Origin: Escherichia coli
GTDB lineage: Bacteria > Pseudomonadota > Gammaproteobacteria > Enterobacterales > Enterobacteriaceae
Assembly: GCF_024223415.1 (NCBI RefSeq)
Contig: NZ_CP100500.1
Strand: one strand, 5' to 3'
DNA: 64,000 nucleotides
The notes under the pieces were generated by a model. The model was not told the DNA's origin. It made no database searches and was given only the letters and a program-made list of their open reading frames with translations. The position numbers and the translations under genes were made by a program. The first letter of the stretch is position 1, and the number at the start of each line of letters is the position of its first letter. Shown here piece by piece: positions 1 through 59,994 of this stretch.

Positions 1-1069
1 GACCCGAGCGCAGGAATAAAAACACCACCAGAATCACCAGCGCCACCGAGATAATCAGCGTTTGCTCGACTTCTTCCAGCGAGGCGCGAATGGTGGGGGA
101 GCGATCCTGGGCAATTTGCAGATCAATCGCCGCCGGAATGGTTTCCTGCAACTCCGGTAATTTTGCCCGGATGCTGTCAACCGTCTGGATAATATTGGCT
201 TCCGGCAGTTTGCGGATCATCAGTAAAATAGCCGGTTTGGCGTTGGTCATCCCGGCGTTGCGCACATCCTGCACTGAGTCGGTCACCGTCGCCACATCGC
301 CCAGACGAACCGCGCCGCCGTTGTTGTAGTGAATAATCAACGGCTGATATTCAGCGGCGGTTTTTAGCTCATCATTGGTCTGGATCTGCCAGCGGTGAGT
401 GCCATCTTCCAGCGCGCCCTGCGGTTTACGCACGTTGGCATTGCTGACGGCGGTGCGTACGTCGTCCAGCGACACGCCCTGATTAAACAGCGCCTGCGGA
501 TTCAGCCCGACGCGTACGGCGGGCAGTGAGCTGCCTCCGACATCGACATCACCAACACCGTCGATTTGCGAAATCGTCGGAGCCAGCTGCGTCGAGGCGA
601 AATCGTACAGTTCACCCTGCGAATAAGTATCGGACGTCAGCGTGAGGATCATAATTGGTGCATCCGACGGGTTCGCTTTGCGATAGGTCGGGCGGCTGGG
701 CATCCCACTGGGCAGCAAACTTTGTGCAGCGTTGATCGCCGCCTGCACATCACGCGCTGCGCCGTTGATATCCCGGTCAAAATCAAACTGCAAAATAATA
801 CGCGTGCTGCCGAGCGAACTGCTGGAGGTCATTTCACTGACTCCGGCAATGCGCCCAAGTGAGCGCTCCAGCGGCGTGGCAACGGAAGACGCCATTGTTT
901 CTGGTGACGCACCGGGCAGCGAGGCGCTGACCATAATCACCGGAAAATCGACCTGCGGCAGCGGGGCGACCGGCAGCATACGGAAGCCCAGTATGCCGCA
1001 CAGGGTAATGGCAACCGACAGTAAAATCGTCGCCACCGGACGGTAAATGAAGAGGGCAAAAAACTTCAC
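1..1069 (-). CDS. mdtC: RND multidrug efflux transporter MdtC, N-terminal part (gene continues past window start)
   Basis: Minus-strand reading from 1069 gives [14 protein letters not shown]..., a typical RND N-terminus; GTG start directly after the mdtB stop; mdtABC synteny. Confidence 0.8.
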
Positions 1070-4000
1070 TTACGCCTCCTCTTCATGACGGGCAAAGCGG
1101 CTTTTGGTCCACAATGCCAGGCGGTCGAACAGCAGATAAATCACCGGCGTGGTGAACAGCGTCAGCACCTGGCTGACAATCAGGCCGCCGACCATGCCGA
1201 TACCTAACGGACGACGCAGTTCCGCGCCGACCCCGGTACTCAACATCAGCGGCAGCGCGCCAAGCAGAGCCGCCAGGGTGGTCATCAGGATCGGACGAAA
1301 ACGCAACAGACAAGCCTGGTAGATTGCCTCGCGCGGCGACATGCCTTGCTCGCGCTCGGCAGCCAGCGCGAAGTCGATCATCATGATGGCGTTCTTCTTC
1401 ACGATACCGATCAGCAAAATAATGCCGATAATCGCAATCACATCCAGTTCGCTACCAGCAATCAGCAACGCCAGCAGTGCGCCAACCCCTGCGGTGGGTA
1501 GCGTCGAGAGAATGGTGATCGGGTGAATAAAGCTCTCGTACAGAATGCCGAGCACGATATACATCGCCACCACCGCCGCGACAATCAGCCAGACAGTGCT
1601 GCCCAGCGCCGACTGGAAGGCGAGGGTGCTGCCCTGGAACTGCGTGGTGATATCCACCGGCAGATTCAGCGTCTTTTCGGTGTCCATAATCGCCTGCACC
1701 GCATCGCCCAGCGAATAGTTATCCGGCACGTTAAAGGAGATGGTCGTTACCGGGAACTGATCCAGATGGTTGATGGAGAGCGGCGCAAAACGCTGCTCAA
1801 TTTTGGCAATTGAGCTTAGCGGCACCACGCCGCCGTCGCTGCTGGTCAGGCGAATGGTATCCAGCGCCGCGAGGCCTGGGGTATTTTCGGTGTTGTGCTC
1901 CAGCACCACGCGATACTGGTTGGCCTGAGTATAAATAGTGGAAATCAGCCGCTGACCAAACGCGTTGTACAGGGCGTTATCGACATCCGCCATGCTGATC
2001 CCCAGACGGCTGGCGCTGTCGCGATCAACATTGACATACGCCACCAGCCCTTTGTCCTGCCAGTCGCTGGAGACATCAGAAAGCTGTGGCAGTTGCTGGA
2101 GTTTTTCCATCAACTGTGGCACCCAGGTACTGAGCGCATCCAGTGACGTGGCCTGCAAGGTAAACTGGTACTGGGTGCGGCTGACCTGAGTATCAATAGT
2201 CAGATCCTGCGTTGGTTGCAGGAAGAGATCGACGCCCGGCACTTTATCTACCGCCGTTTGCAGACGGGCGATGACTTTTTGCACCCGATCATCACGTTCA
2301 TCCAACGGTTTGAGGTTGATTTGTAAACGTGCACTGTTCAGCGACGGGTTAGTGCCATCAACGCCAACAAATGAGGTCAGGCTTTGCACTGCCGGATCCT
2401 GCAAAATCACGTCCGCGACCTGGCGTTGTCGCTGGGCCATATTGGCAAAGGAGCTGGATTGCGGTGCCTGCAAAGTGCCCTGAATAATGCCATTGTCCTG
2501 TACCGGGAAGAAACCTTTCGGAATGAACACCCACAGCAGCACGCTAAGCAGCAGCGTGCTGAGTGCCACGCTTAAGGTCAGCCACGGATGATTCAGCACT
2601 TTCGCCAGTCCACGACCATAGGCGGCGATTATCCTGTCGAACATTTTTTCCGAGGCACGGGAGAAGCGGTTCTGTTTACGCAACGACTCCTGGCTGAGCA
2701 TCCGCGCGCACATCATCGGTGTCAGGGTCAGCGACACCACCGCTGAGATCAAAATCGCTACCGCCAGGGTAATAGCAAATTCGCGGAACAGTCGCCCGAC
2801 GATATCGCCCATAAACAGCAGTGGGATCAACACCGCAATCAGCGAGAAGGTCAGCGAGATAATGGTAAAGCCGATTTCACCTGCGCCCTTGAGCGCCGCC
2901 GCCAACGGTTTTTCGCCTTTTTCGATATAGCGGGAAATGTTTTCGATCACTACGATGGCGTCATCGACCACGAATCCGGTGGCGATAGTTAACGCCATCA
3001 GTGTCAGGTTATTGATTGAAAAATCGAGAAACACCATAACCGCAAAAGTGCCGATTAACGACAGCGGTACAGCAACACCGGGAATGATGGTCGCCGGAAT
3101 ATTGCGCAAAAACAGGTAGATAATCATGACTACCAGCGCGATAGCCATCATCAATTCAAACTGAGTATCATCGACGGATGCGCGGATATTGGTGGTGCGA
3201 TCGGAAAGCACTGTCACCTTCACCGATTTCGGCAGACTCTCAGTGAGCTGTGGCAGCATCTGCCGAATGCTGTCGGCGGTGGAGATAATGTTAGCACCGG
3301 GCTGGCGCTGAACATTCATCACAATGGCCTGTTCTTTGTTCGCCCACGCGCCGAGCCAGCTGTTTTCTGCACCTTGCTCTACAGTTGCGACATCGCCCAG
3401 ACGAATTGGCGCGCCGTTCTGGTAGGCGATGATTAGCTGGCGATACTCTTCGGCGGATTGCATCTGGTCGTTCGCGGAAAGCGTGACCGCACGGGAAGGG
3501 CCGTCGAGGCTACCTTTTGCCGAGTTAACGTTAGCGCCGGTAATGGCGGTGCGCACGGTTTCGCTGGTCAGGCCGAGGGCGGCAATCGCCTGAGCGTTAA
3601 GTTTGACGCGAACAGCCGGACGCTGACCGCCGGAAAGCGTCACCAGGCCGACGCCGGAAATCTGCGAGATTTTCTGCGCGACGCGGGTTTCCACCATATC
3701 TTCCACTTGCGTCATCGGCATGGCGGTTGAGGTGACGGCGAGCGTCATGATCGGCGGATCTGCCGGGTTCACTTTGCTGTAAACCGGCGGGTTAGGCAGA
3801 TCGCTCGGTAGCAGGTTAGTGGCGGCGTTAATCGCGGCCTGCACTTCCTGCTCGGCGACATCGAGCGGTAATGTTAGCTGGAACTGTAAGGTGATAACTG
3901 ACGCACCGCCGGAACTTTGCGACGACATCTGTTTCAGGCCAGACATCTGCCCGAACTGGCGCTCGAGCGGCGCGGTAACGGCAGAGGTCATGACATCCGG

Positions 4001-5689: not shown

Positions 5690-5835
5690 GGAAGGGGCCT
5701 TAAATAAGGAAAGGGTCATGATGAAGCTACTCATCATCGTGGTGCTCTTAGTGATTAGCTACCCAGCATACTAAGACTACCAGGGCGGGGGAAACCCCGC
5801 TCTACCCTCACTCCTGAAAGTATGCCTTCACGATA
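5690..5835 (-). ncRNA. sib: Sib antisense sRNA (antitoxin) of ibs copy 1; boundaries approximate
   Basis: Established architecture of ibs/sib loci: a ~140-nt antisense RNA spans the toxin ORF. Ends not determinable from sequence alone. Confidence 0.4.
5718..5774 (+). CDS. ibs: Ibs-family type I toxin peptide, copy 1 (MMKLLIIVVLLVISYPAY)
   Basis: 18-codon hydrophobic ORF with the MMK start typical of Ibs toxins; preceded by aggaaagg SD-like sequence. Confidence 0.75.
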   Translation: MMKLLIIVVLLVISYPAY

Positions 5836-6017
5836 AGATTGTCAATCCGCAGGATTTGCCGTCTGCGATCCTGCCAGCAAAAATTCTTTGCGAGACGTTA
5901 CGCAATAATCACACTGGAAACTATTTTATCTGCAAGTCAGCGATAGACTAAGTGCATGGCGAAAGGAGGTAAGCCGACGATTTCAGCGGGACGCTGAAAC
6001 GGGAAAGCCCCTCCCGA

Positions 6018-6163
6018 GGAAGGGGCCTTAAATAAGGAAAGGGTCATGATGAAGCTACTCATCATCGTGGTGCTCTTAGTCATAAGCTTCCCCGCTTACT
6101 AAGACTACCAGGGCGGGGGAAACCCCGCTCTACCCTCACTCCTGAAAGTATGCCTTCACGATA
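6018..6163 (-). ncRNA. sib: Sib antisense sRNA of ibs copy 2; boundaries approximate
   Basis: Same repeat unit as copy 1. Confidence 0.4.
6046..6102 (+). CDS. ibs: Ibs-family type I toxin peptide, copy 2 (MMKLLIIVVLLVISFPAY)
   Basis: 18-codon ORF; sequence as I recall IbsB. Confidence 0.8.
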   Translation: MMKLLIIVVLLVISFPAY

Positions 6164-6347
6164 AGATTGTCAATCCGCAGGCTTTGTAGTCTGCGATCCT
6201 GCCAGCAAATATTCTTTGCGAGTCGTTACGCAATAATCACAGAGGAAACTATTTTATTCACGCGTTAGCGATAGCCTGCATTCAGGGCGAAAGGAGGTAA
6301 GCCGATGATTTCAGCGGGACGCTGAAACGGGAAAGCCTCTCCCGGAG

Positions 6348-6495
6348 AAGAGGGCTTTTAATAAGGAAAGGGTTATGATGAAGCACGTCATCATACTGGT
6401 GATACTCTTAGTGATTAGCTTCCAGGCTTACTAAGAACACCAGGGGGAGGGGGAAACCTCTCCCTAACCCTCACTCCTGAAATTATGTCACTCCG
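6348..6495 (-). ncRNA. sib: Sib antisense sRNA of ibs copy 3; boundaries approximate
   Basis: Same repeat unit as copy 1. Confidence 0.4.
6375..6434 (+). CDS. ibs: Ibs-family type I toxin peptide, copy 3 (MMKHVIILVILLVISFQAY)
   Basis: 19-codon ORF, IbsA-like. Confidence 0.8.
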   Translation: MMKHVIILVILLVISFQAY

Positions 6496-6654
6496 CCCTT
6501 AGTGTCAATCGACGGCTCTCCGTTCTTGCGAGGCGAATAGCAAAATTTTCTGCGCCGCCGGGCCTAATTCTGAAAGTTTCTTCGTTTGCTCTTATTTCAT
6601 TATTGCAGTCGGTATGATACCGGACCTCAATAATTCTCTAAGAAAGGATTTCTT

Positions 6655-19580: not shown

Positions 19581-21164
19581 TCACACCTCGTACTCCATCT
19601 CGCCATCCTTACGCAGCGGTATAATCTGCACCTTCTGCACGCGATGGCTTTCTACCTGCAACGTTTTAAGCAAATAATCCCCCACCTGAACTTCTTCGCC
19701 AGGTTTTGGAATACGCTGCAAATACTCCATCAACAGCCCGGCAATGGTGTGATATTCACGTTTTTCATCCAGCGGCAGCGGCACATATTGCACCAGATCC
19801 TCCAGCGGCATATGACCATTCGCCGTCCAGGAACCGTCCGCATTCTTCTGAATATCATGGCGGGCGTCGATCTCTTCCACTTCGTTCGGTAAGTTACCGG
19901 CAATGGTTTCAGTGACGTCACTTAATGTCACAATCCCTTCCACCGAGCCAAACTCATCCACCACAAAAGCAAAGTGCGTGCGGGCATTACGGAACTGCTC
20001 CAGGGCAGGTAACAACGGCAAGGTTTCCGGGAACACCAGCGGCTGGCGAATCAACACCCGCAGGTTGAGCGGTTCGCCGCGCAGAGACTGTTGTAGCAGG
20101 TCGATAACGTGAACAACACCGAGCAAATCTTCTGCGTCATCACCGTCGGTAACCACCAGCCGCGTATGCTGATTTCGCTCCAGCAACTGGCGGATCTCGT
20201 CTTCCGGCGCGTTGAGATCGATATGCTCAATATCGTGGCGCGACGTCATAATGCTGCTGACGGTACGCTGGTTAAGATTTAGTACCCGCTCAATCATCCG
20301 CCGTTCCTGCGGATTAAAGATCTGCTGGTTACCATGATCCACCAGCATGGACGCGGTTTCGGCGTCCAGTTCCGCATCTTCTTTTTGCCCGCTAAGCAGG
20401 CGCATTACCGCTTCGGTAGTCCGCTGGCGCAGCGTCTGGTTAGCGGAAAGAAAACGTCGCCGGTTAAAGATAGCCAACTGATTGAGCGCCTCGATCATCA
20501 CCGAGAAACCAATGGCAGCGTACAGGTAGCCTTTCGGAATGACGAAGCCGAAACCTTCTGCCACCAGGCTAAAGCCAATCATCAACAGGAAGCTTAAGCA
20601 GAGAATAACGATCGTCGGGTGACTGTTAACAAATTGCGTTAACGGCTTGCTGGCCATCAACATCAGGCTGATAGCGATAACCACGGCGGCCATCATGACC
20701 AGTAAATGGTCGACCATCCCGACGGCGGTAATCACTGAGTCGAGTGAGAAAATGGCGTCCAGTACCACAATTTGCGTCACCACGCCCCAGAACTTCGCAC
20801 CTTTGCGTTGTGTGGGATTATTGCTGTCTTTCCCTTCCAGCCGTTCGTTCAGCTCCATCGTGGCTTTGAACAACAGGAAGAAACCACCAAACAGCATGAT
20901 TAAGTCGCGGGCGCTAAAGGTAAACGAGCGGAAGCTGAACAGCGGTTGAGTCAGGGTGACCAGCCAGGAGATTGACGCCAGCAGTAACAGGCGCATTAAC
21001 ATTGCCAGCAGCAGCCCGGTAACCCGTGCGCGGTCACGCTGCTTCGGCGGTAGTTTTTCGGCGAGGATGGCAATAAAGACCAGGTTATCAATGCCGAGGA
21101 CCAGTTCGATCACAATCAGCGTGATTAACCCGGCCCAGATAGACGGATCGGCAATCCATTCCAT
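19581..21164 (-). CDS. yegH: TerC-family membrane protein with CBS and CorC/HlyC domains (YegH)
   Basis: ORF track 19581..21230 uses a TTG; trimmed to the ATG at 21164 giving [16 protein letters not shown]... (527 aa). Confidence 0.88.
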
Positions 21165-21605: not shown

Positions 21606-21645
21606 CAGTGTATTGGTAGCTAAAAAGCCAGGGGCGGTAGCGTGT
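21606..21645 (+). promoter_or_regulatory. JUMPstart with ops element in the wza leader (RfaH-dependent antitermination)
   Basis: cagtgtattggtagctaaaaagccaggggcggtagcgtg contains the ops core GGCGGTAGCGTG. Confidence 0.8.
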
Positions 21646-21822
21646 CTGGATGCCTGAAAGACCAGTCTGAATTATTCTGTCAATAGCCTGCGGATGAAAT
21701 CAATTTTTTTAGGACTGATGCCAGTTAAATTTGTATTCAATTAACTGCAAGGTAAATGTGCATGGCGACATTGCTATTAATAGTGCACAGGATAATTACT
21801 CTGCCAAAGTGATAAATAAACA

Positions 21823-25577: not shown

Positions 25578-25637
25578 GACGCCTGCATTCGCACCGCCCC
25601 GTAGGCCGGATAAGGCGCTCACGCCGCATCCGGCAAG
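25578..25637. repeat. REP element between wzc and wcaA
   Basis: gacgcctgcattcgcaccgccccgtaggccggataaggcgctcacgccgcatccggc. Confidence 0.55.
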
Positions 25638-35983: not shown

Positions 35984-36084
35984 CAGTTGAATAATCAACC
36001 GGATTAATTCTCCGGTAAATAACGACAAAAACAAAATTGGCCATTTCGGTCAGGGCCAACTATTGCCTGAAAAAGGGTAACGAT

Positions 36085-44358: not shown

Positions 44359-44532
44359 ATTTGCGACCATTCCTGGAAAAATGGATCCATACTTAGGAAC
44401 AATGCTACTGCAATCCACAACGAAGCGGCGTAACATCACAAGTAATTCAGTAATCAATTCAGGGTAATTGATGCTGGCGAAAAAAATCGAACAAGCTATA
44501 ATTCAGCAACCATTTTACAGGTGGATGAAATA

Positions 44533-45426
44533 ATGACGAATTTAAAAGCAGTTATTCCTGTAGCGGGTCTTGGGATGCATATGTTGCCTGCCACTAAGGC
44601 GATTCCCAAAGAGATGCTACCGATCGTCGACAAGCCTATGATTCAGTACATTGTTGACGAGATTGTGGCTGCAGGGATCAAAGAAATCCTCCTGGTAACT
44701 CATGCGTCCAAGAACGCGGTCGAAAACCACTTCGACACCTCTTATGAATTAGAATCTCTCCTTGAACAGCGCGTAAAGCGTCAATTGCTTGCGGAAGTGC
44801 AGTCCATCTGTCCACCGGGCGTGACCATTATGAACGTGCGTCAGGGCGAACCTTTAGGTTTGGGTCACTCCATTTTATGTGCACGACCCGCCATTGGTGA
44901 CAATCCATTTGTCGTGGTGCTGCCGGACGTTGTGATCGACGACGCCAGCGCCGACCCGCTGCGCTACAACCTTGCTGCCATGATTGCACGATTCAACGAA
45001 ACGGGTCGTAGCCAGGTGCTGGCAAAACGTATGCCGGGTGACCTCTCTGAATACTCGGTCATCCAGACCAAAGAACCACTGGACCGTGAAGGTAAAGTCA
45101 GCCGCATTGTTGAATTTATCGAAAAACCGGATCAGCCGCAGATGTTGGACTCAGACATCATGGCCGTTGGTCGTTATGTGCTTTCTGCCGATATTTGGCC
45201 GGAACTTGAACGCACGCAGCCAGGTGCATGGGGGCGTATTCAGCTGACTGATGCCATCGCTGAACTGGCGAAAACACAGTCCGTTGATGCCATGCTGATG
45301 ACAGGTGACAGCTACGACTGCGGTAAAAAAATGGGTTATATGCAGGCATTTGTGAAGTATGGACTACGCAACCTCAAAGAAGGGGCGAAGTTCCGTAAAG
45401 GGATTGAGAAGCTGTTAAGCGAATAA
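44533..45426 (+). CDS. galF: UTP-glucose-1-phosphate uridylyltransferase homolog GalF
   Basis: ORF track starts at GTG 44521; ATG at 44533 gives [30 protein letters not shown] (297 aa). Confidence 0.95.
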
Positions 45427-45683: not shown

Positions 45684-45722
45684 CAGTGTTCTGGTAGCTG
45701 TAAAGCCAGGGGCGGTAGCGTA
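45684..45722 (+). promoter_or_regulatory. JUMPstart with ops element in the O-antigen cluster leader
   Basis: cagtgttctggtagctgtaaagccaggggcggtagcgta; ops core GGCGGTAGCGT. Confidence 0.8.
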
Positions 45723-46450
45723 CATATGAGGAAACATTTCAGCTGAAATAATTGAATATTCCAAAGCATGAGAGTTACTTAATTTGTAAAAGTGCTACAG
45801 TACAATAGAGAGGATCTCTGTCTTCATATTGTTTGCGATCATCTCAGATGAAGTTATTGATTTCATCTTTTAATAGAAGAACTGAATAGAATATGTATGG
45901 CATTATCATTTTGAACAATAATAATAGAATAAAAGGAAGACATCGAAATGGTGGTCAAACATTACATCAGTTCTATTGATTTGACAGCAGAGAAGTCTGC
46001 CACAGCGAACCAAAATTACTGACTCGTAGAGAAGAAGTTGCACTGGCTGCTGAATGGTAATGGATGAAGACGACAGAGAAATAAGAAAAGAAAACTCAGC
46101 AGAATTACCTTCAGGGATATAGCGCATCACTATTTATGTATTGACTAAAGATAAAGCATTTAAGAAAGGTTAAGGTGTAAGGTGTGAAAAGCAGCCATGG
46201 GTAAGGTTCGTTTCGCACAGGCGTTACTTACAGTAGATGGTCGGCACATCGTAAGACTTGGTCTGATTGCCAGATCATATGTGAGACATCAGAAAAAATT
46301 TAAGCAAATATATAAACAGTAGGTGATGTTGTTAAAGTATAAAACAGATATGGTAGTCAAATAAAGCAAAGTATCGTTGGAAAAATATCTGTAAAATCCC
46401 TGGTGCGTTCACGTGAGTTAGAGTAAAAGTAATGAGGAGGTTCTATTTTT

Positions 46451-47551
46451 ATGAGTTTTGAAAATTGGTATATAAAAGATATTGAACCATATAAACTGGC
46501 TAGTCATAAAGTATGGGACGATGTTTGCAACCGAGATATATTAAAATTAGATTGGAATGAAGCAACTATTCCTGCTAGTCCGTATGTAAAGAAAAGAATT
46601 TTAGAAACTATTGATAAAATAGAGTTTAGATATTACCCAAACGTAAACAACATGGAGTTGTTAACAGCTATCGCGGGATATACTCAACTCAACATAGAAA
46701 ATATTCAATATTTTCCAAGTTCTGATGCTGCACATGAATATATAGCATCAGTATTCTTAACATCAGAAGATAGAGTGTTAATATTGTCCCCGACATATGA
46801 TAATTTCAGGCTAACCTGTCAAAGTAGAGGGGCGGAAATATCGTATGTTAATTGTTTTGATGGGGCGTTTCAATTCCAGAGTGAATTATTTATAAATGTT
46901 TTGAAAGAAACAAAGCCTAAAATTGCATATATGTGTAACCCTAACAATCCGACGGGTTCAATAATAAGGCGGGAATATATAAAGAAAATATTAACTCTTT
47001 TTCCTGATATCTTGTTTGTTTTAGATGAGGCTTATATTGAATTTTCATCTGGTTCATGTGGTGATTTTGTTAAGGAATATGATAATTTGATAGTATCAAG
47101 AACCTTCTCGAAGGCATTTGCGCTGGCCAATTTTAGGATTGGTTATATATTGGCTTCACCTAAACTTATAGTTTCAATTAATAAAATAAGAAATTCTAAG
47201 AATGTAACGACATTATCACAAGAGGCTGCAGTTGCTGCATTGCATGATTCTCAATATATGCAAGCTTATGTTAATGAGGTGATTGTAGCGCGACAATACT
47301 TTATTGAAGAGATAAATAGAAGGTTTGGAGATAAGCTGATAGCATATGAAAGTCATGGTAATTTTGTTCTTGTAAAATGCTCCTCGGAAATACTAAAAAA
47401 AACATTAATAAAAGGCCTGGAGGAACAAGATATTTTCATAAGAGATTTGTCACACAAGGAGCTCAATGGTTTACATATAAGGATTACTATTGGAACACGG
47501 ACTCAAATGAGGCAGGTGCTTAATGTTATTGAAAATATTATTGGTCAATAA
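46451..47551 (+). CDS. PLP-dependent class I/II aminotransferase-fold enzyme, HisC/CobD-like
   Basis: 366 aa; motifs CNPNNPTG, DEAYIEF and SRTFSKAFALANFRIGY (candidate PLP-lysine); low-GC codon usage. Confidence 0.8.
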   Translation: MSFENWYIKDIEPYKLASHKVWDDVCNRDILKLDWNEATIPASPYVKKRILETIDKIEFRYYPNVNNMELLTAIAGYTQLNIENIQYFPSSDAAHEYIASVFLTSEDRVLILSPTYDNFRLTCQSRGAEISYVNCFDGAFQFQSELFINVLKETKPKIAYMCNPNNPTGSIIRREYIKKILTLFPDILFVLDEAYIEFSSGSCGDFVKEYDNLIVSRTFSKAFALANFRIGYILASPKLIVSINKIRNSKNVTTLSQEAAVAALHDSQYMQAYVNEVIVARQYFIEEINRRFGDKLIAYESHGNFVLVKCSSEILKKTLIKGLEEQDIFIRDLSHKELNGLHIRITIGTRTQMRQVLNVIENIIGQ

Positions 47552-47587
47552 TATGTTTGCAGGCGCTCTTTATTATGTTGGTCAGCG

Positions 47588-48277
47588 ATGAAATATAAAT
47601 ACGCTTTTTTTGATTTTTGTGAAACGTTGGTGGATTTACAAACTGCTGATGATTACATTTCTGATGTGATTATTAAGAAGGAAGGCCGATGGAGTTATAA
47701 GCTTGCGATTATTGGCTTCTTAAGGAATAGATGGGTTAATAAATTATTTAATAAATTGTTTAACAATTATGATAACCCTAAGTCTTTGATTTTGAAGCTG
47801 GTTAAAGGGTTTGACTATGGGGTCTTTTCTGTTGCTGCAGAAGAATATTGTAAAAAACTAATGGAGTATTACTTAATTGATGATGTTATTTCGGAGATGC
47901 TAGAATTAAAAAAAAAGAATTATCAAATAATCATTGTCTCTGGGGGATATGATATATATATAAAGCATTTTTTTTCCTCAGTTGTAGATAAGGTTATAGC
48001 TACCGAGATTGATTTTTCTGATTCTAAGTGTCTGGGGAAAATATCAGGTATTGATTGTTTAGGTGTGAACAAGTTAAACAAAATAAAGAAATATATTGAT
48101 GTCAACACAATAGATTATGAAAATTCCTACGTCTTTTCTGACAGTAAAACAGATTTGCCTCTTTTTTCGTTAGCAAAGAATAAAATTGTCATATCTAAGA
48201 AAAAAAACAAATCGTGGGTTAATGAGCAAAATGAAGAATTTATTGAAAAAGTATGGTGTCCTAAAAAAATATGCTAA
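47588..48277 (+). CDS. HAD-superfamily hydrolase, probable phosphatase
   Basis: 229 aa; HAD motif I-like AFFDFCETL (second Asp replaced by Cys), motif II IVSGG, motif IV-like FSDSKTDLPLF. Confidence 0.7.
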   Translation: MKYKYAFFDFCETLVDLQTADDYISDVIIKKEGRWSYKLAIIGFLRNRWVNKLFNKLFNNYDNPKSLILKLVKGFDYGVFSVAAEEYCKKLMEYYLIDDVISEMLELKKKNYQIIIVSGGYDIYIKHFFSSVVDKVIATEIDFSDSKCLGKISGIDCLGVNKLNKIKKYIDVNTIDYENSYVFSDSKTDLPLFSLAKNKIVISKKKNKSWVNEQNEEFIEKVWCPKKIC

Positions 48278-49145
48278 GAAGTATTATTACTATACTTCTT
48301 CTTTTTTAATGTCAGATGAATTATATATAAAAAGGAAGTTTAAGAAAATTTTCGGATATGCTTTGGATATCAATAATCCAAAAACAATGAATGAAAAGAT
48401 GCAATGGATGAAGTTACATATGCATCCTCAGGAATATAATATTTTTGCAGATAAACTTCTTGTTAGAAAATACGTGGAAGAAAAGATTGGTAAAAATATA
48501 CTAATACCTATTTTTGCAGTATACGAAAGTGAAGCCGAATTAAATATAGATTCTTTGCCTGACGAACCATTTATCATTAAGACGAATCATGATAGTTCTG
48601 GTGGAATAATCGTGAGAAACAAATCAGAACTCAATATAAAGGATGCAAAAAGTTTTTGTCGATTTAATTTGAATAACAATCATTATTATATATCAAGAGA
48701 GAAACATTATAAACATTTAGACAGAAAAATTATTATAGAGAAGCTCCTTCTTACAAAATCCGGAAAAATCCCAAATGATTATAAAATAAATTGTATAAAT
48801 GGGCGTGCTGAATTTATATATTGCTCTATTGATAGAGAGGGGAAAAATTACCGAAAGATTTATGACAGGTCTTGGTGTGAAATGGATTTTAAATGGGGAA
48901 ATAAAGATGAGTTTGAGCATAAATTTACTGGGCCCAATATTGAAAAGCCTGATAATTTAGATAAAATGATTGAGTATGCGGAGATATTATCAATGGGGTT
49001 TCCTTATCTAAGAATAGATTTATACAATGTTGATGGGGAAATATATTTAGGAGAAATAACTATTTATCATGGGGGAGGGTTTGATGTTATTGAGCCAAAA
49101 GAATATGACTTATTTTTTGGTAATAAGATTCATTTAGAAAAATGA
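48222..49145 (+). CDS. TupA-like ATP-grasp amidoligase (start uncertain; ORF track begins at TTG 48186)
   Basis: N-terminal NPKTMNEKMQWMKL matches the conserved P-x-TFNEKIQWLK region of TupA-like ATP-grasp proteins; overlaps the upstream HAD ORF by 56-92 nt in another frame. Confidence 0.7.
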   Translation: MSKMKNLLKKYGVLKKYAKKYYYYTSSFLMSDELYIKRKFKKIFGYALDINNPKTMNEKMQWMKLHMHPQEYNIFADKLLVRKYVEEKIGKNILIPIFAVYESEAELNIDSLPDEPFIIKTNHDSSGGIIVRNKSELNIKDAKSFCRFNLNNNHYYISREKHYKHLDRKIIIEKLLLTKSGKIPNDYKINCINGRAEFIYCSIDREGKNYRKIYDRSWCEMDFKWGNKDEFEHKFTGPNIEKPDNLDKMIEYAEILSMGFPYLRIDLYNVDGEIYLGEITIYHGGGFDVIEPKEYDLFFGNKIHLEK

Positions 49146-50362
49146 AAAATATTATAAAGAATGGGCTGTCTCTTTCTTTTATAAAGGCAGTGACTTTGCT
49201 ATTTCCTATCGCCATTGTACCTATCCTGATATCAAAGATAGGAATGGATAAATATGGGGAAGTTGTATTTATCACTGCAATATATTCATATTTTATTAAT
49301 GTGGTTAGCTTTGGATTTGAAGAATCAGCCACTCAAGTCTTGGCAAAGAATCACTTCTCAGGTTTGTCGAAAAATGAATATATTTTGTCTGTTATCGTGC
49401 TCAAGGGCATAATTGCTGTTTCTATAATTTTTGTCATTTGTGGTTTGTATTTTTTGGGGATGGGAGGAGATTTTTTCTCATTGCTATTTTGTATTACCAT
49501 CGTCGCTGAGGTTTTTAATCCCTTATGGTTTTATCAGGGGGTCGAAAGAATTCATATTATCTCAGTGAGCTCTATAGTATCAAAATCATTATATACAATA
49601 TTAATATGTCTGTTTGTGAGATGTAATAATGATTATTACCTTGTTCCTGTATTTTTAGGCGGTGCGAATATTCTTTCTTATGTCTATCCGTTTGTTGCTA
49701 TGTGTAATGAGTGTAAATTTCGGCGCAATGACTTGAACTATAATAATTTGAAAAAAGTATTATTAGACTCAGTTAGTATATTCCTTACTAATTTTATCCC
49801 AACATTGAAAGATAAGATAGGTGCTATATTGATAGGTTTATCTTTCTCCATGAATATCGTAGCGATTTATGATATAATTATAAAAATACTTAATTTATTG
49901 TTTATTCCAGTAAATGTAATAAATGCATCGTTCTATCCAACACTTTCCAGGAAGAGAGAAAAGAAAATATTAATGCAATTAATGTATATAAATTTGGGTT
50001 ATGCTATTTTTGCATTTGTTATCGTATGTAATTTTTTTGATTATTTTTCCAATATCTACTTCCAATCCTATTCAGCGTATTCCGATGCTGTAAAAATAAT
50101 ATCTGTGTCTGTTGTTTTTTACTCAGTGAGTTTAATGATTGGAAAAAATATCCTATTGGTCACTGGTTTTTATCATCATGTGCTGCTCAGTATTATATTA
50201 TCGACAGGATTTTATTTGATGTTTGTCTGCTTTATGTATTCTCTTAGTTCATTGAGTATATATTCATTATGCTTTTTAACAACAGCATCATTCTTATTTG
50301 AAATGCTGGTTAGGTTAATTATGTTAAAGAAGACTAAGGCCTTGTTTTTTTTTAAATATTAA
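49142..50362 (+). CDS. wzx: O-antigen flippase Wzx
   Basis: 406 aa polytopic membrane protein, MOP-family-like; ATGA overlap with the upstream gene. Confidence 0.8.
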   Translation: MKNIIKNGLSLSFIKAVTLLFPIAIVPILISKIGMDKYGEVVFITAIYSYFINVVSFGFEESATQVLAKNHFSGLSKNEYILSVIVLKGIIAVSIIFVICGLYFLGMGGDFFSLLFCITIVAEVFNPLWFYQGVERIHIISVSSIVSKSLYTILICLFVRCNNDYYLVPVFLGGANILSYVYPFVAMCNECKFRRNDLNYNNLKKVLLDSVSIFLTNFIPTLKDKIGAILIGLSFSMNIVAIYDIIIKILNLLFIPVNVINASFYPTLSRKREKKILMQLMYINLGYAIFAFVIVCNFFDYFSNIYFQSYSAYSDAVKIISVSVVFYSVSLMIGKNILLVTGFYHHVLLSIILSTGFYLMFVCFMYSLSSLSIYSLCFLTTASFLFEMLVRLIMLKKTKALFFFKY

Positions 50363-50376
50363 TTAGGTATGGAAGT

Positions 50377-51246
50377 ATGAAAACAGTGTCAGTAATCATT
50401 CCAACATATAGGGATTGGGAAAGATTATCTAAATGTTTAAATGCAATAAAAAAACAAAGATATCCCGCAGAGTTTATTCAGGTAATAGTCATTAATAATG
50501 ATCCATTTGATGATAATCCATTTATAAATAGTGATGAATATAAAAATGTAAAGTTTTTAGTAGAGGGAAAGGTGGGTTCTTATGCAGCAAGAAATAAAGG
50601 CCTAAATTATGCAAAAGGGGAGATTATAGCATTCACTGATTCAGATTGTGTCCCAGATGAGTTTTGGATTTCAAATGCTGTTCGACATTTTGAAGAAAAT
50701 AGTAAATGCACAAGAATTGGTGGGAAAATTGAATTATTTTTCAAAGGTAATGTAAGTAAAACCCTAGCTGAATTTTATGAACAAAGTTATGCTTTCCGGC
50801 AGAAAGAGTTTGTTCAACGACAGGGAATGGCTGCAACAGCTAATATGTTCTCATATAAGAAGGTTTTTGATGATATATCATATTTCAATGATTCATTGAT
50901 GTCGGGAGGAGATGCCGAATGGGGAGTTAGGGCAAATAATAAAGGATATAGAATAGACTATTGTGATTCTGTCACTGTTTATCATCCGGCAAGAGAATCG
51001 ATGAAACAAATTTTTATAAAAAATCGAAGGGAAGCCAGTGGTAAAATAAAAAATAAACGAAAAGTGTTAATCAATTTTGTAATGTCATTGCTCCCACCAT
51101 TAAAATCGTTGATGTATATTAGGTATCATGGGAATAGTATATATAAAGTATTAATTGCATTTTTTATTAGATATTTAATGAGGATTGATACGGCTATAGA
51201 ACAAATCCGGGTTGTGTTTTTTAATAAGAAAGCCGAGCGATTATGA
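50377..51246 (+). CDS. Glycosyltransferase family 2
   Basis: 289 aa; VSVIIPTYRDWERLSKCLNAI and FTDSDC motifs. Confidence 0.8.
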   Translation: MKTVSVIIPTYRDWERLSKCLNAIKKQRYPAEFIQVIVINNDPFDDNPFINSDEYKNVKFLVEGKVGSYAARNKGLNYAKGEIIAFTDSDCVPDEFWISNAVRHFEENSKCTRIGGKIELFFKGNVSKTLAEFYEQSYAFRQKEFVQRQGMAATANMFSYKKVFDDISYFNDSLMSGGDAEWGVRANNKGYRIDYCDSVTVYHPARESMKQIFIKNRREASGKIKNKRKVLINFVMSLLPPLKSLMYIRYHGNSIYKVLIAFFIRYLMRIDTAIEQIRVVFFNKKAERL

Positions 51247-52487
51247 AAATGTTTTTTTTTGTTCTTTGCGTGTTCTTTTTAATAAATGGCTTTTATATAT
51301 ATCCGCCATTTAATAGTGCAATTTTAGCACCGATGTTAGCTTTATTGGGAGCACTAACATTAAGGAAGAAAATAACGATAAAGCCCTTTTCTGACTTGTT
51401 AGATCCTTCATTTTTATTTTGGTTTCTTTTTGTAAGTTGTTATTGTCTATCAATTGCAGTTTTCTCAAAAACATATGACTTATCATATGTAAAGAACTTT
51501 ATATCACAACTTGTTCAATTTGCTATTATTTTATTTAGTTTTTTTATGTTATCATCAATAGATGGAGCATTTTCTCTTAAGATAGAAAAAATTATCGTAT
51601 ATAGCTTCGTTTTACAATCTGTTATTCAGATAGCAGCATTTCTATATCCTGGAATAGCCGATATTATTCATTTATTTTATGATAAAGATAAAGTAGAGCG
51701 ATTATACATCAATTACGCAGGAGTAAGAGGACTGGCGTTGACTGGTTCCCCAGGGTGGGGAATATCTGTTGGATATGCTATATCATTTTTACTTTTTGTT
51801 AAAGCATTTGTTATTAATCAGAAATTGAAGTTTTCTAGTATTATAGTTGCAATACTACTTTTAATCGGTGCAATGTTTACTGGTCGCAGTGCTTTTATTG
51901 GTGTTATTTTCGGTGGGGGGTATTATCTTGTATCAGGAGAGGATATTACAAAAAAAATCAAAACTATAATTCTATTTTTAATTCTTCCTGCATTAATATG
52001 CATGTTAACATATATAATGTTGCCATCCCTATCCTCACTATTCGGAGATAAGGTTTTCCCATTTGTCTTTGAGTTCTATTATAAATACAAAGACACAGGT
52101 GAGTTATCTACTAAATCTACAGATATTTTGTTGAATATGTGGGATCTTAACGTTGATGTTACTGACATTGTGTTCGGTACAGGTAATTTCACAAATGACA
52201 AAACTGGAGAGTATTATTTCGGTAGTGATGTGGGATATCTCCGGAATTTATTGTATGGTGGTTTTTTTTGGATGTTCACTCTTTTTATTTATCAGGTTTC
52301 ATTATTTGGACAACTGCGTTGGTGGAAAAAAAGAAAGGATATTAAATTATTTGTATTCATTTTTATAGCCATGTTAATGTTGCTTGAGATGAAAGCAATG
52401 GCCATAGGATATAATAAATATGTGTTTACAGTTTCTATTTTATTAGGATTGTCATTTAAAGAGAGATACAGAAATGCTTACCAATAA
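51243..52487 (+). CDS. wzy: O-antigen polymerase Wzy
   Basis: 414 aa, about 10-12 predicted TM segments with a large loop; no similarity to Wzx; position. Confidence 0.7.
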   Translation: MKMFFFVLCVFFLINGFYIYPPFNSAILAPMLALLGALTLRKKITIKPFSDLLDPSFLFWFLFVSCYCLSIAVFSKTYDLSYVKNFISQLVQFAIILFSFFMLSSIDGAFSLKIEKIIVYSFVLQSVIQIAAFLYPGIADIIHLFYDKDKVERLYINYAGVRGLALTGSPGWGISVGYAISFLLFVKAFVINQKLKFSSIIVAILLLIGAMFTGRSAFIGVIFGGGYYLVSGEDITKKIKTIILFLILPALICMLTYIMLPSLSSLFGDKVFPFVFEFYYKYKDTGELSTKSTDILLNMWDLNVDVTDIVFGTGNFTNDKTGEYYFGSDVGYLRNLLYGGFFWMFTLFIYQVSLFGQLRWWKKRKDIKLFVFIFIAMLMLLEMKAMAIGYNKYVFTVSILLGLSFKERYRNAYQ

Positions 52488-53385
52488 AGTCTCTGTTGTT
52501 ATTCCGACACATAGTCGGCCTAATCTTTTGCGAAAAGCTATAGAAAGTGTTTTGAATCAGACATATAAGCCATGTGAAATTATTGTTGTTGATGATACAG
52601 AATCTGAAGAAACCGCTCGATGTTTATCTGTCATAAATAGCGATATACCTATTAGGCTAAAGTATAACACTTCTTCTGGTGCCGGCTCGTCTAGGAATTT
52701 AGGTGCAAAGATTGCTAATGGTGATTTTGTGGCTTTCTTGGATGACGATGATCTCTGGCTTCCAACTAAATTAGAAACGCAGATGTATGAATTGCGGCAT
52801 ACACAATATGATGCAATTTTTTGTCAGATGATAATAAATTATGAAGGGGTAAACATACAATATTCTACTCGAGCCAAAAATGTAGCTGAACCATTAAAAG
52901 AAATATGTATTGAAAACTTTATTGGTGCCACAATATCCTGTGTTATACGCCGTTCAATTTTTATGAAATTAGGAGGGTTTGATGAAAGATTCAAGGCTAG
53001 AGAGGAATATGATTTATGGATTCGAGTTATTCAATCTAATGCTAAAATTAAAATAATAGAAAAACCATTAACTATTTCAAATCGTTCTTTTGTACGGAAT
53101 CGTATTTCTTCTAACATAAATAATTATGAGCACGGAATATCACTTATTAACGAAAAATATGCTCGATTGATTACTGAAATATTAACTCCCAATGAGAGAA
53201 GAATAAGATTATCGAAACAATATGAATTTCTAGCTGCTCAGGCAATATCTTTAGGCCTTAAAATGACAAGCTCAAAGTATTATTTTAAGTCTTTTTTAAC
53301 AATTCCTTCTCTTAAATCGTTATTTCTTTCATTGTTGAGTATTATTTCTCCGCTAATGATAATAAAAATTAGAAGCAAACTTTAA
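52474..53385 (+). CDS. Glycosyltransferase family 2
   Basis: 303 aa; VSVVIPTHSRPNLLRKAIESVLNQTY and FLDDDD motifs. Confidence 0.8.
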   Translation: MLTNKVSVVIPTHSRPNLLRKAIESVLNQTYKPCEIIVVDDTESEETARCLSVINSDIPIRLKYNTSSGAGSSRNLGAKIANGDFVAFLDDDDLWLPTKLETQMYELRHTQYDAIFCQMIINYEGVNIQYSTRAKNVAEPLKEICIENFIGATISCVIRRSIFMKLGGFDERFKAREEYDLWIRVIQSNAKIKIIEKPLTISNRSFVRNRISSNINNYEHGISLINEKYARLITEILTPNERRIRLSKQYEFLAAQAISLGLKMTSSKYYFKSFLTIPSLKSLFLSLLSIISPLMIIKIRSKL

Positions 53386-53427
53386 TTATATCATCATTAT
53401 TAGACAGTCAATAACTGTGGAGTTAAC

Positions 53428-54690
53428 ATGAGTTCTGGGTTTAATTCTATTGAAAAGAACTTTTCAAGATTTTTATCTTACTTTCCAGGGATAAAAAAAA
53501 TAATTAAAAAAGCTTACATAAGGATAAATTTTTATATCTACAAAAAAGAACATAAAGTAAAAAGTGATTACAGCATCCATACGATTGATATCGATAGTTG
53601 CGAAACTTTTTTTGGATACTATGATAAATGTCCCGATAATGGTAAAGGAGATGTTATCGTTTGTGCATCGACTATATCTACCCACAACATACCTGATCCA
53701 AACAATCCGATTAAATTATATGTGTACAATCTTTGTACTAAAGATAAGGTGTTCATTGCTAATATTTCTGCATATAATTGGCAACAAGGATGTCGTGCTC
53801 ATTGGCTAAACGATGATTTACTTATTTATAACTTTTACTCTCATGAAAAGCGTAATTATTCGTCGAAAATATACTCAATCATAGAGAAAAAACATATAGC
53901 AGAGTTCTCTTTTGCGGTACAAGACAGTTTTCTTGGTAATTATTTTTTATCTATAAACTATTCTCGCTTAATGGCGTTACGCCCAGATTATGGATATAGA
54001 AATAAAAGTTTTTCTTGGGAATTGTTTGATCTGGCTAATGATGGTATATGGAAAGTCGATATTAGCTCTCGTAAGGGAGAATTAATCGTTACATTTTGTG
54101 ATATTATTAATTTTGAGTTTGAAAATAATGATGAGTATAAACATAAAGTTAACCATGTAATGATTTCTCCCGATGGTGAAAAATTTATATTTATACATCG
54201 TTATTATTATAAAGGTAAACGGAATGATAGATTAATGTTGTCAACCAAAGACGGACATTTAATTTCAGTATTAGCTAATAATAAAATGGTTAGTCATTGT
54301 TGTTGGCTTTCCAATGATAAAATTATCGGTTATTTAAGATCTGATAGTGGTGATGATAGTTATTGGGTTATTGATATAAATAATCTGGAGTCATACCAAC
54401 TCTTAGATGGTGAATTACTAAAATATGGCGATGGTCATCCATCGAATTGTAAAAATCTATTAGTGACGGATACATATCCTAATAAGTCAAGATATCAGAA
54501 ATTATTATTAGTCGATATGGATAATGATAATTACCAGGAACTTGGTGAGTTTTTACATGATCTTAGTTTTTCTGATGAGACTAGATGTGACTTACATCCT
54601 CGCTTTTCTCATGATGGCAGCATGATTTTTTTTGATTCAGTTTTTTCTGGAAAACGCAAGTTATGCTATTTACAGTTAATTAATAAATAA
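53428..54690 (+). CDS. Hypothetical protein, possibly beta-propeller-like; function unknown
   Basis: 420 aa, no GT signature recognised; repeated SPDG/SHDG-type strands (MISPDGEKFIFIH, HPRFSHDGSMIFFDS). Confidence 0.55.
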   Translation: MSSGFNSIEKNFSRFLSYFPGIKKIIKKAYIRINFYIYKKEHKVKSDYSIHTIDIDSCETFFGYYDKCPDNGKGDVIVCASTISTHNIPDPNNPIKLYVYNLCTKDKVFIANISAYNWQQGCRAHWLNDDLLIYNFYSHEKRNYSSKIYSIIEKKHIAEFSFAVQDSFLGNYFLSINYSRLMALRPDYGYRNKSFSWELFDLANDGIWKVDISSRKGELIVTFCDIINFEFENNDEYKHKVNHVMISPDGEKFIFIHRYYYKGKRNDRLMLSTKDGHLISVLANNKMVSHCCWLSNDKIIGYLRSDSGDDSYWVIDINNLESYQLLDGELLKYGDGHPSNCKNLLVTDTYPNKSRYQKLLLVDMDNDNYQELGEFLHDLSFSDETRCDLHPRFSHDGSMIFFDSVFSGKRKLCYLQLINK

Positions 54691-54695
54691 AGTGA

Positions 54696-55511
54696 TTGTA
54701 TATGAAAGTCGCAGTCGCAATGTCTGTATATAAGAATGATAATCCTATATACTTAGAGAAAGCCATTAAAAGTATATTGAATCAAACATATAAAAATATC
54801 CATTTATATATAGAGGTCGATGGAGTCATATCTCCACAATTATATCAATGTTTATCCTCTTTTATCTCATGCTCAAATATTAGTATAAATTTTAATAGTG
54901 ATTGTAAAGGATTGGCATTTAGATTAAATAATATTATTGATAAGGTTATATTTGATGGAGGATATTCGTATATTGCAAGAATGGATGCTGATGATATATC
55001 TCGACTCGATAGGATTGAAAAACAAGTAATATTTATGCAGACCCATAAGGATATTTCTGTTGTTGGTTCTGATGTTCTAGAAATAGATGAGGATGATAAT
55101 TTTTTATTTTACAAAAAAATGCATTGTGATCATGAGATCATCGTTCGAGATATTATTAAGAAATGTCCAATAAATCATCCCTCAGCATTTTTTAAAATAT
55201 CTTCATTTTATATAGTTAGATATAATTCCACCTTGAAGAACACACAGGATTATTACTTGTGGATTGATTTTATTTATAATAATTTAAAGATCTCAAACAT
55301 CAATGAGCCTTTGTTAAAATTTAGAGTGAATAGAGATTTTTATTCACGGAGAGGGTTTGATAAAGCTATCAATGATGTAAAATCACGAATATATGCCTTG
55401 CGAAAGTTGAATTGCTATTCACTAAGGAATATATTTCATATATTAATGCTTTTTTTTCTTAGAGTATCTCCGACTGTAATAAAAAAAATTGCATACAATA
55501 GACTTAGATAA
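54696..55511 (+). CDS. Glycosyltransferase family 2-like
   Basis: 271 aa; VAMSVYKNDNPIYLEKAIKSILNQTY and ARMDADDIS motifs; start may be the ATG at 54702. Confidence 0.75.
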   Translation: MYMKVAVAMSVYKNDNPIYLEKAIKSILNQTYKNIHLYIEVDGVISPQLYQCLSSFISCSNISINFNSDCKGLAFRLNNIIDKVIFDGGYSYIARMDADDISRLDRIEKQVIFMQTHKDISVVGSDVLEIDEDDNFLFYKKMHCDHEIIVRDIIKKCPINHPSAFFKISSFYIVRYNSTLKNTQDYYLWIDFIYNNLKISNINEPLLKFRVNRDFYSRRGFDKAINDVKSRIYALRKLNCYSLRNIFHILMLFFLRVSPTVIKKIAYNRLR

Positions 55512-58581: not shown

Positions 58582-59586
58582 TCAAACTTTATAGAAGTTA
58601 CGATACCATTCTACAAAGTTCTTTACCCCCTCTTTAACTGACGTTTCAGGTTTGAATCCTATTACGTCATACAGTGCTTTGGTATCAGCACTGGTTTCCA
58701 GTACATCACCGGGTTGGAGAGGCATCATATTTTTGTTGGCTTCAATACCCAGAGCCTCTTCTAACGCATTGATATAGTCCATCAACTCTACAGGCGAACT
58801 ATTACCAATGTTATAGACACGATATGGTGCTGAACTTGTTGCAGGCGAGCCTGTTTCTACAGCCCACTGTGGATCTTTTTCTGGAATAACATCCTGTAAG
58901 CGAATAATAGCTTCGGCAATATCATCAATATAAGTAAAGTCACGCTTCATTTTGCCGAAGTTGTAAACATCAATGCTTTTACCTTCCAACATGGCTTTAG
59001 TAAATTTAAATAATGCCATATCCGGACGTCCCCATGGACCATAAACCGTAAAGAAACGCAGTCCTGTGGTCGGTAAGCCATACAAATGAGAATATGTATG
59101 GGCCATGAGTTCATTCGCTTTTTTAGTTGCTGCATAAAGTGAAACAGGATGATCTACAGAGTCATCTGTAGAGAAAGGCATCATGCGGTTCATACCATAA
59201 ACAGAACTGGAGGAAGCGTAAAGTAGATGCTGAACATTATTATGGCGGCATCCTTCCAGTATGTTCAGGAATCCAATCAGGTTTGCATCTGCATATGCAT
59301 TGGGATTTTCAAGGGAGTAACGTACACCGGCTTGCGCAGCGAGGTTTATTACGCGATCGAACCGCTCCTCTGCAAACAGTGCTGCCATTTTCTCACGATC
59401 GGCCAGGTCAATTTTATAAAAACTGAAATTGTCGTGCTTGAGTAAATCAAGTCGTGCTTGTTTGAGGTTGACATCGTAATAATCATTTAAGTTGTCAATG
59501 CCTACAACCTGATGACCAGCTGCAAGAAGCCGTTTACTTACATAGAAACCGATAAAGCCAGCAGCTCCCGTAACCAGAAATTTCAT
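58582..59586 (-). CDS. gla: UDP-glucuronate 4-epimerase (NAD-dependent SDR epimerase, Gla/CapI-like)
   Basis: 334 aa; [21 protein letters not shown] Rossmann motif and YxxxK (YAATKKANE); position between ugd and wzz. Confidence 0.8.
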
Positions 59587-59752
59587 TTATTATCCTCTCT
59601 CAGGCTTGATTATAGCCAATCTTCATCTGGCATAACTGAAAGTTAAATCATACCGTTAGACAAGAAAAAAAGATAATCGGTATCAGTTCTAAACATGGCT
59701 GTTTTTTCTGGTAACGTGCTCATTTTACAATCAAAGATGTTCTAAACTGACT

Positions 59753-59848
59753 ATACAAGCCGACGTCATTATTTCCAACCGTATGACAGAAGAGCTTAAG
59801 GATGTGGCAGATAAGGTCTACACCCGCGATCTCTTTGGCAGTGACTAA
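59753..59848 (+). pseudogene. ugd: Remnant of a second ugd 3' end (last ~30 codons) downstream of gla
   Basis: Translates to [31 protein letters not shown], near-identical to the C-terminus of the intact ugd ([29 protein letters not shown]). Confidence 0.75.
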
Positions 59849-59994
59849 CATCTTGTTATCAGGGCGATTTTCGCCCTGATTGTCTTATGTTTCCTTTGTA
59901 ATAATTCATTGTTTTTATCATTTATCCTATAGCATTCATGGCGATTATTGCTAAACTATGGCGACTTAAAATTATTTCGTCCGTTAGGGTAATG

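Follow-up and report, generated by a model that had tools for sequence, protein, structure and literature searches.

Are the two ops-like sequences in this 64-kb stretch of Escherichia coli DNA (hereafter, the window) genuine JUMPstart/ops elements of the operons that they precede, and does either copy depart from the family to which it belongs? Work on the RfaH/ops system and on JUMPstart dates back to the 1990s, and JUMPstart was reportedly described by Hobbs and Reeves in 1994 as a 39-bp element. The sequences, their strand, leader position, and family membership, and the conservation of the upstream stem were obtained here, while RfaH binding and the ops mechanism are taken from the literature; the rfaH gene lies outside the 64-kb window.

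Open reading frames, RefSeq annotation of identical records, and Pfam matches identify the window as a segment of an E. coli chromosome. It begins with mdtB, mdtA, three Sib RNAs, and yegL through yegH, followed by the wza leader. It continues with wza through wcaM, galF, the O-antigen leader with nine genes, gnd, and ugd, and ends with a minus-strand NAD-dependent epimerase gene, wzzB, and hisIE. The features on which the argument turns are as follows.

21046 to 21056, plus strand: ops-like 11-mer GGCGGTAGTTT, inside the minus-strand gene yegH
21606 to 21644, plus strand: JUMPstart element of the colanic-acid (wza) leader, Rfam RF01707, 57.3 bits, E 1.6e-10
21613 to 21631, plus strand: 5-bp JUMPstart stem of the wza copy (TTGGT at 21613-21617, GCCAG at 21627-21631), from the Rfam consensus structure
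21633 to 21644, plus strand: 12-nt ops of the wza leader, GGCGGTAGCGTG, canonical, with TG at positions 11-12
21823 to 44358, plus strand: colanic-acid operon wza-wzb-wzc-wcaA...wcaM, 22.5 kb, from open reading frames and RefSeq annotation
44521 to 45426: galF
45684 to 45722, plus strand: JUMPstart element of the O-antigen leader, Rfam RF01707, 56.6 bits, E 2.6e-10
45691 to 45709, plus strand: 5-bp JUMPstart stem of the O-antigen copy (CTGGT at 45691-45695, GCCAG at 45705-45709)
45711 to 45722, plus strand: 12-nt ops of the O-antigen leader, GGCGGTAGCGTA, canonical core, with A rather than G at position 12
45728 to 46207, plus strand: decayed ISAs1/H-repeat (ISEc1-like) transposase remnant in the operon orientation, about 6 bp after ops
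46208 to 46450, plus strand: AT-rich spacer of 243 nt, ending in GAGGAGG before the first O-antigen gene
46451 to 55511, plus strand: nine O-antigen genes, 9.06 kb, about 30% GC

The exact 11-mer GGCGGTAGCGT matches the 64-kb window twice, at 21633-21643 and 45711-45721, both times on the plus strand. The pattern search across the window that the earlier note had proposed therefore recovers both sites, and its degenerate form, GGCGGTAGNNT, adds a single match at 21046, giving three matches where 0.33 would be expected by chance. Of the two spans given in that note, 45711-45722 coincides with the 12-nt ops on the plus strand, while 21634-21645 is off by one base. The JUMPstart context claimed for both is borne out by Rfam: against a gathering score of 35 bits for RF01707, both copies align to the model over its full length (positions 1-38 of 38), and strand and leader position agree. 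The 39-nt elements are identical to each other at 34 positions and differ at five, with flanks that are unrelated and do not align.

That the two GGCGGTAGCGT matches arose by chance can be dismissed outright. The sole point in favour of coincidence is that a third, degenerate match exists, and against it stand the 34/39 identity within unrelated flanks, Rfam E values of about 1e-10, and the placement of both copies on the sense strand of leaders. The third match, GGCGGTAGTTT at 21046, is itself rejected as a chance occurrence, being without JUMPstart context, without an Rfam match, and on the template strand of yegH, the only annotated transcript there. Published ChIP data indicate no RfaH loading at ops-like sites within genes (PMC9765446).

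Both copies carry the ops core GGCGGTAG (positions 1-8) together with T11. In each case, ops forms the 3′ end of the 39-nt element, and is intergenic, the distance to the first gene being 178 nt for wza and 728 nt in the O-antigen operon. Because each ops reads in the same direction as the genes that it precedes, it is presented on the non-template strand, as the RfaH mechanism requires. The window copies share with JUMPstart (RF01707) the 5-bp stem, the second GGTAGC repeat, and the position just upstream of polysaccharide clusters, and nothing material sets them apart from that family. With the E. coli ops/RfaH system, as found in the rfb, waaQ, hly, kps, tra, and wza leaders, they share the same core GGCGGTAG..T, the non-template strand, and the location in the leader of a long operon. 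The cps copy in the window is the K-12 sequence itself, whereas the O-antigen copy differs in having A12 in place of the G of TG. At the level of sequence, both sites are confirmed as real JUMPstart/ops elements and represent ordinary, established biology.

The 5-bp stem is formed by standard pairs in both copies, TTGGT/GCCAG and CTGGT/GCCAG. Species-representative genomes were scanned for CAGGGGCGGTAGCGT; a recognisable arm is present upstream at 63 sites, and across these related sites the innermost pair varies among T-G, A-T, G-C, and C-G. This compensatory variation supports the stem. When the 45-nt RNAs are folded by minimum free energy, the result is no better than for shuffled sequences (z of -1.39 and +0.24) and lacks the Rfam stem. 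The ops 12-mers, folded as DNA, yield a marginal hairpin that differs from the non-canonical one in the literature. The minimum-free-energy RNA fold of the cps leader (21627-21649, plus strand) pairs CCAGG with a downstream TCTGG, enclosing ops; this fold is not significant (the z of -1.39 above) and cannot coexist with the Rfam stem. The motif (G/A)(T/C)CTGG also follows ops in cps-type leaders from other enterics.

A covarying stem raises the prospect that the 39-nt element is mainly an RNA or DNA hairpin regulator, or a recombination junction, that works independently of RfaH. The Rfam class of the element, cis-regulatory RNA, and the cessation of inter-serogroup homology at the element would fit such a role. 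The invariant part of the element, however, is the single-stranded ops and not the stem, RfaH-ops contacts and ChIP occupancy have been published (PMC5995543, PMC9765446), and point mutations in ops that spare the stem have already been reported to cause a loss of distal expression in ops reporters (PMC5995543). The boundary role, for its part, is accounted for by position, since no conserved functional sequence lies between the element and the variable genes. A primarily RfaH-independent function is accordingly very improbable.

The preferred reading is that both elements act through RfaH. A 12-nt ops is present in the leader of all RfaH-controlled operons and constitutes a consensus pause; a hairpin in the non-template strand flips out T6 for recognition by RfaH, and recruitment requires G4, G5, A7, and G8 (PMC5995543). 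The statement in the earlier note that ops recruits RfaH for transcription through long polysaccharide operons is backed by ChIP-seq in E. coli CFT073, in which RfaH binds eight leader ops sites, including those of the wza and O-antigen (wzx) leaders, with a signal that is lost upon deletion of rfaH (PMC9765446). At the CFT073 wza site, RfaH is bound only when promoter silencing by H-NS/StpA is lifted (PMC9765446). Antitermination of the colanic-acid operon by JUMPstart and RfaH is also cited as standard knowledge (PMC9976346).

By analogy with these systems, a promoter upstream of each element would start transcription, and RNA polymerase would pause at U11 while transcribing the 12-nt ops. 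The exposed non-template strand would form a small hairpin with T6 flipped out, RfaH would bind and refold, and it would remain on the polymerase to the exclusion of NusG. RfaH would then suppress pausing, Rho-dependent polarity, and H-NS roadblocks and couple the ribosome to the transcript, the outcome being expression of the distal genes in both the colanic-acid operon (22.5 kb) and the AT-rich O-antigen operon (9 kb). Judged on their sequence and on what is published for their counterparts, the two elements are very probably canonical JUMPstart/ops modules that act via RfaH, each in the transcribed leader of a long surface-polysaccharide operon.

Both operons do exceed 9 kb, as had been noted. 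The scan for plus-strand intrinsic terminators finds no convincing or strong one inside either operon, and the first strong plus-strand terminators follow gnd (57132), ugd (58533), and wzzB (60995). This pattern fits a role for RfaH against Rho and H-NS and not against hairpin terminators; the notion that ops is needed for reading through a specific hairpin terminator was dropped. The GC content of the O-antigen cluster (about 30%, compared with about 53% for cps) is a composition typical of H-NS targets. With C/G ratios of 0.6-0.8, both leaders and the O-antigen mRNA are C-poor, which is atypical of strong Rho-loading sites. Upstream of wza there is no recognisable Shine-Dalgarno sequence, which fits RfaH-assisted ribosome loading, while the first O-antigen gene is preceded by a GAGGAGG Shine-Dalgarno sequence.

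A 701-bp stretch around the wza leader shows 100% identity to E. coli K-12 DH5alpha, and about 4,800 of the 5,426 complete E. coli genomes match it at 95% identity or more. A search for the RcsAB box (consensus TAAGAATATTCCTA, up to three mismatches) finds none upstream of wza and an overall count at the level of chance. Within the colanic-acid operon, the gap between wzc and wcaA contains a REP-type hairpin, GCCGGATAAGGCGCTCACGCCGCATCCGGC, at 25605-25634 on the plus strand, which lacks a T-tract and may be an internal site of pausing or processing for RfaH-modified polymerase to cross. An algC RNA motif (RF02929, 73 bits) lies at 36031-36080 on the plus strand, directly upstream of the phosphomannomutase gene cpsG. 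Further upstream in the window, between mdtA and yegL, are three tandem minus-strand copies of Sib RNA (SIB_RNA, RF00113) at 5703-5845, 6031-6173, and 6360-6508, scoring 141-150 bits each; K-12 presumably has two at this locus, sibA and sibB.

The O-antigen cluster is present in only two of the 5,426 complete E. coli genomes, Combat11I9 and 181.1. Its genes encode, in order, an aminotransferase, a HAD hydrolase, a TupA-like ATP-grasp protein, Wzx, a GT2 glycosyltransferase, a 414-aa protein, a second GT2, a 420-aa protein, and a third GT2. Neither the 414-aa nor the 420-aa protein has a Pfam match, and the former is a candidate Wzy. The aminotransferase, HAD hydrolase, and TupA-like ligase genes at the start of the cluster (46451-49145, plus strand), together with the NAD-dependent epimerase gene between ugd and wzzB (58582-59586, minus strand), suggest a uronic acid amidated with an amino compound. 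Between the epimerase gene and wzzB, RefSeq annotates an N-terminally truncated pseudogene fragment (59733-59828, plus strand), with a terminator-like hairpin (59858-59880) after it; the fragment may be another recombination scar, on the 3′ side of the cluster.

The O-antigen copy of ops differs from the cps copy and from the Rfam consensus at position 12 (45722), where it has A in place of G, and it therefore ends in TA and not TG. The substitution is a minority variant. It occurs in three of 60 evenly sampled E. coli records that match the element (about 5%) and in two of 26 JUMPstart-context sites of other species, 23 of which have G, and it recurs in other serogroups (strain 89-3156; H86 and H87) and in Citrobacter. 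TG at positions 11-12 is common to all validated E. coli targets and is pause-inducing (Zuber et al., PMC5995543). In the same study, all ops substitutions except G2C reduced stimulation by RfaH, and G12C abolished the U11 pause in vitro while RfaH recruitment was kept; G12A was not among the substitutions tested (PMC5995543).

These observations open the way to a reading in which the O-antigen ops is weakened or bypassed: TA would fail to pause the polymerase for RfaH, and a promoter in the insertion-sequence remnant or the spacer would drive the cluster. The minority status of A12, the TG dinucleotide of the validated targets, and the loss of the pause in G12C all lend themselves to this reading, as do promoter-like hexamers at 45897-45930 inside the remnant. 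Yet those promoter-like matches number four where shuffled sequences give 3.6, and sigma-70 promoter scans of both leaders return counts at or below the shuffle expectation. Residues G4, G5, T6, A7, and G8 are intact, the G12C substitution left recruitment in place, and A12 recurs elsewhere. A weakened or bypassed element is therefore quite unlikely. Functional RfaH loading at the O-antigen leader stays the favoured account, in which A12, given its recurrence, is probably tolerated and the pause is perhaps weaker; a TA-ending ops would pause less strongly and still recruit RfaH.

The second peculiarity of the O-antigen copy is what lies downstream. Its ops is followed by 728 nt of untranslated sequence with no credible open reading frame, while in the two other serogroups examined the first gene begins about 20 and about 75 nt after ops. 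RfaH modification would be what takes polymerase across this long leader, most of which derives from an insertion sequence. The segment 45728-46207 matches transposase genes of the ISAs1 family (H-repeat/ISEc1) in their 3′ part with 76.8% identity over 478 nt (blastn, E 8e-97) and, in translated searches (tblastn, E 4e-24), is spread over three frames with several in-frame stops. It covers roughly residues 205-365 of 378, with truncation on either side: about 200 codons are lost from the 5′ end, and the 3′ homology stops at about 46207, short of the end of the insertion sequence. Within 45728-46207 there is neither an intact transposase reading frame nor a pair of terminal inverted repeats, and the segment is, by these sequence features, a remnant and not a functional insertion sequence. 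The spacer that follows (46208-46450) has E. coli homologs only in the two genomes with the same cluster.

Homology to other serogroups stops at 45719-45730, i.e., 0-9 bp after the O-antigen ops, which makes ops the last conserved sequence before serogroup-specific DNA. The suggestion that ops can anchor operon boundaries is thus upheld for this cluster, and JUMPstart is known to flank O-antigen clusters on their 5′ side (PMC4732683). The hexamer GAGGAA at the breakpoint (45728-45733) is shared by the ISAs1 gene and by the closest leader type, that of strain 89-3156, where it falls in the ribosome-binding region. The ops-ISAs1 junction was not found in the other 5,424 E. coli genomes or in 120 ops loci of other species.

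H-repeat remnants are documented at O-antigen recombination junctions such as that of Salmonella group D2 (PMC3715488). The present junction resembles the D2 type in having a decayed ISAs1 remnant between conserved and serogroup-specific DNA; it differs in that the remnant is situated within the transcribed leader, about 6 bp downstream of ops, and helps to lengthen that leader to 728 nt. It is regarded here as a further example and not as a new phenomenon, possibly with involvement of microhomology.

Just upstream of the truncation point, ISAs1 genes carry GCTGTAAA-AGGAA-ACCAGGGGCGG (a 5-nt gap), encoding AVKGNQGR. This patch, GCTGTAAA...CCAGGGGCGG, is JUMPstart-like and resembles the JUMPstart sequence GCTGTAAAGCCAGGGGCGG, a similarity that is only modestly unusual, its score being reached by eight of 500 shuffles and by none of 470 random genomic chunks. 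One could imagine that the resemblance guides short-homology recombination of H-repeat elements with JUMPstart and the recurrent splicing of foreign O-antigen clusters behind an intact ops and, as a linked possibility, that TA-ending ops elements form a distinct low-pause class, but we regard this proposal as a long shot.

That JUMPstart/ops elements precede the wza and O-antigen operons is already known, both leaders being documented RfaH targets. For annotation, the two copies provide reliable anchors for the start of the colanic-acid transcript and for the 5′ edge of serogroup-specific O-antigen DNA. The A12 variant and the 728-nt leader derived from an insertion-sequence remnant are of interest only to specialists in the evolution of O-antigen clusters or in the sequence requirements of ops. 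The TA-ending ops and the long, insertion-sequence-derived leader could change the strength of RfaH dependence of O-antigen expression in this serogroup.
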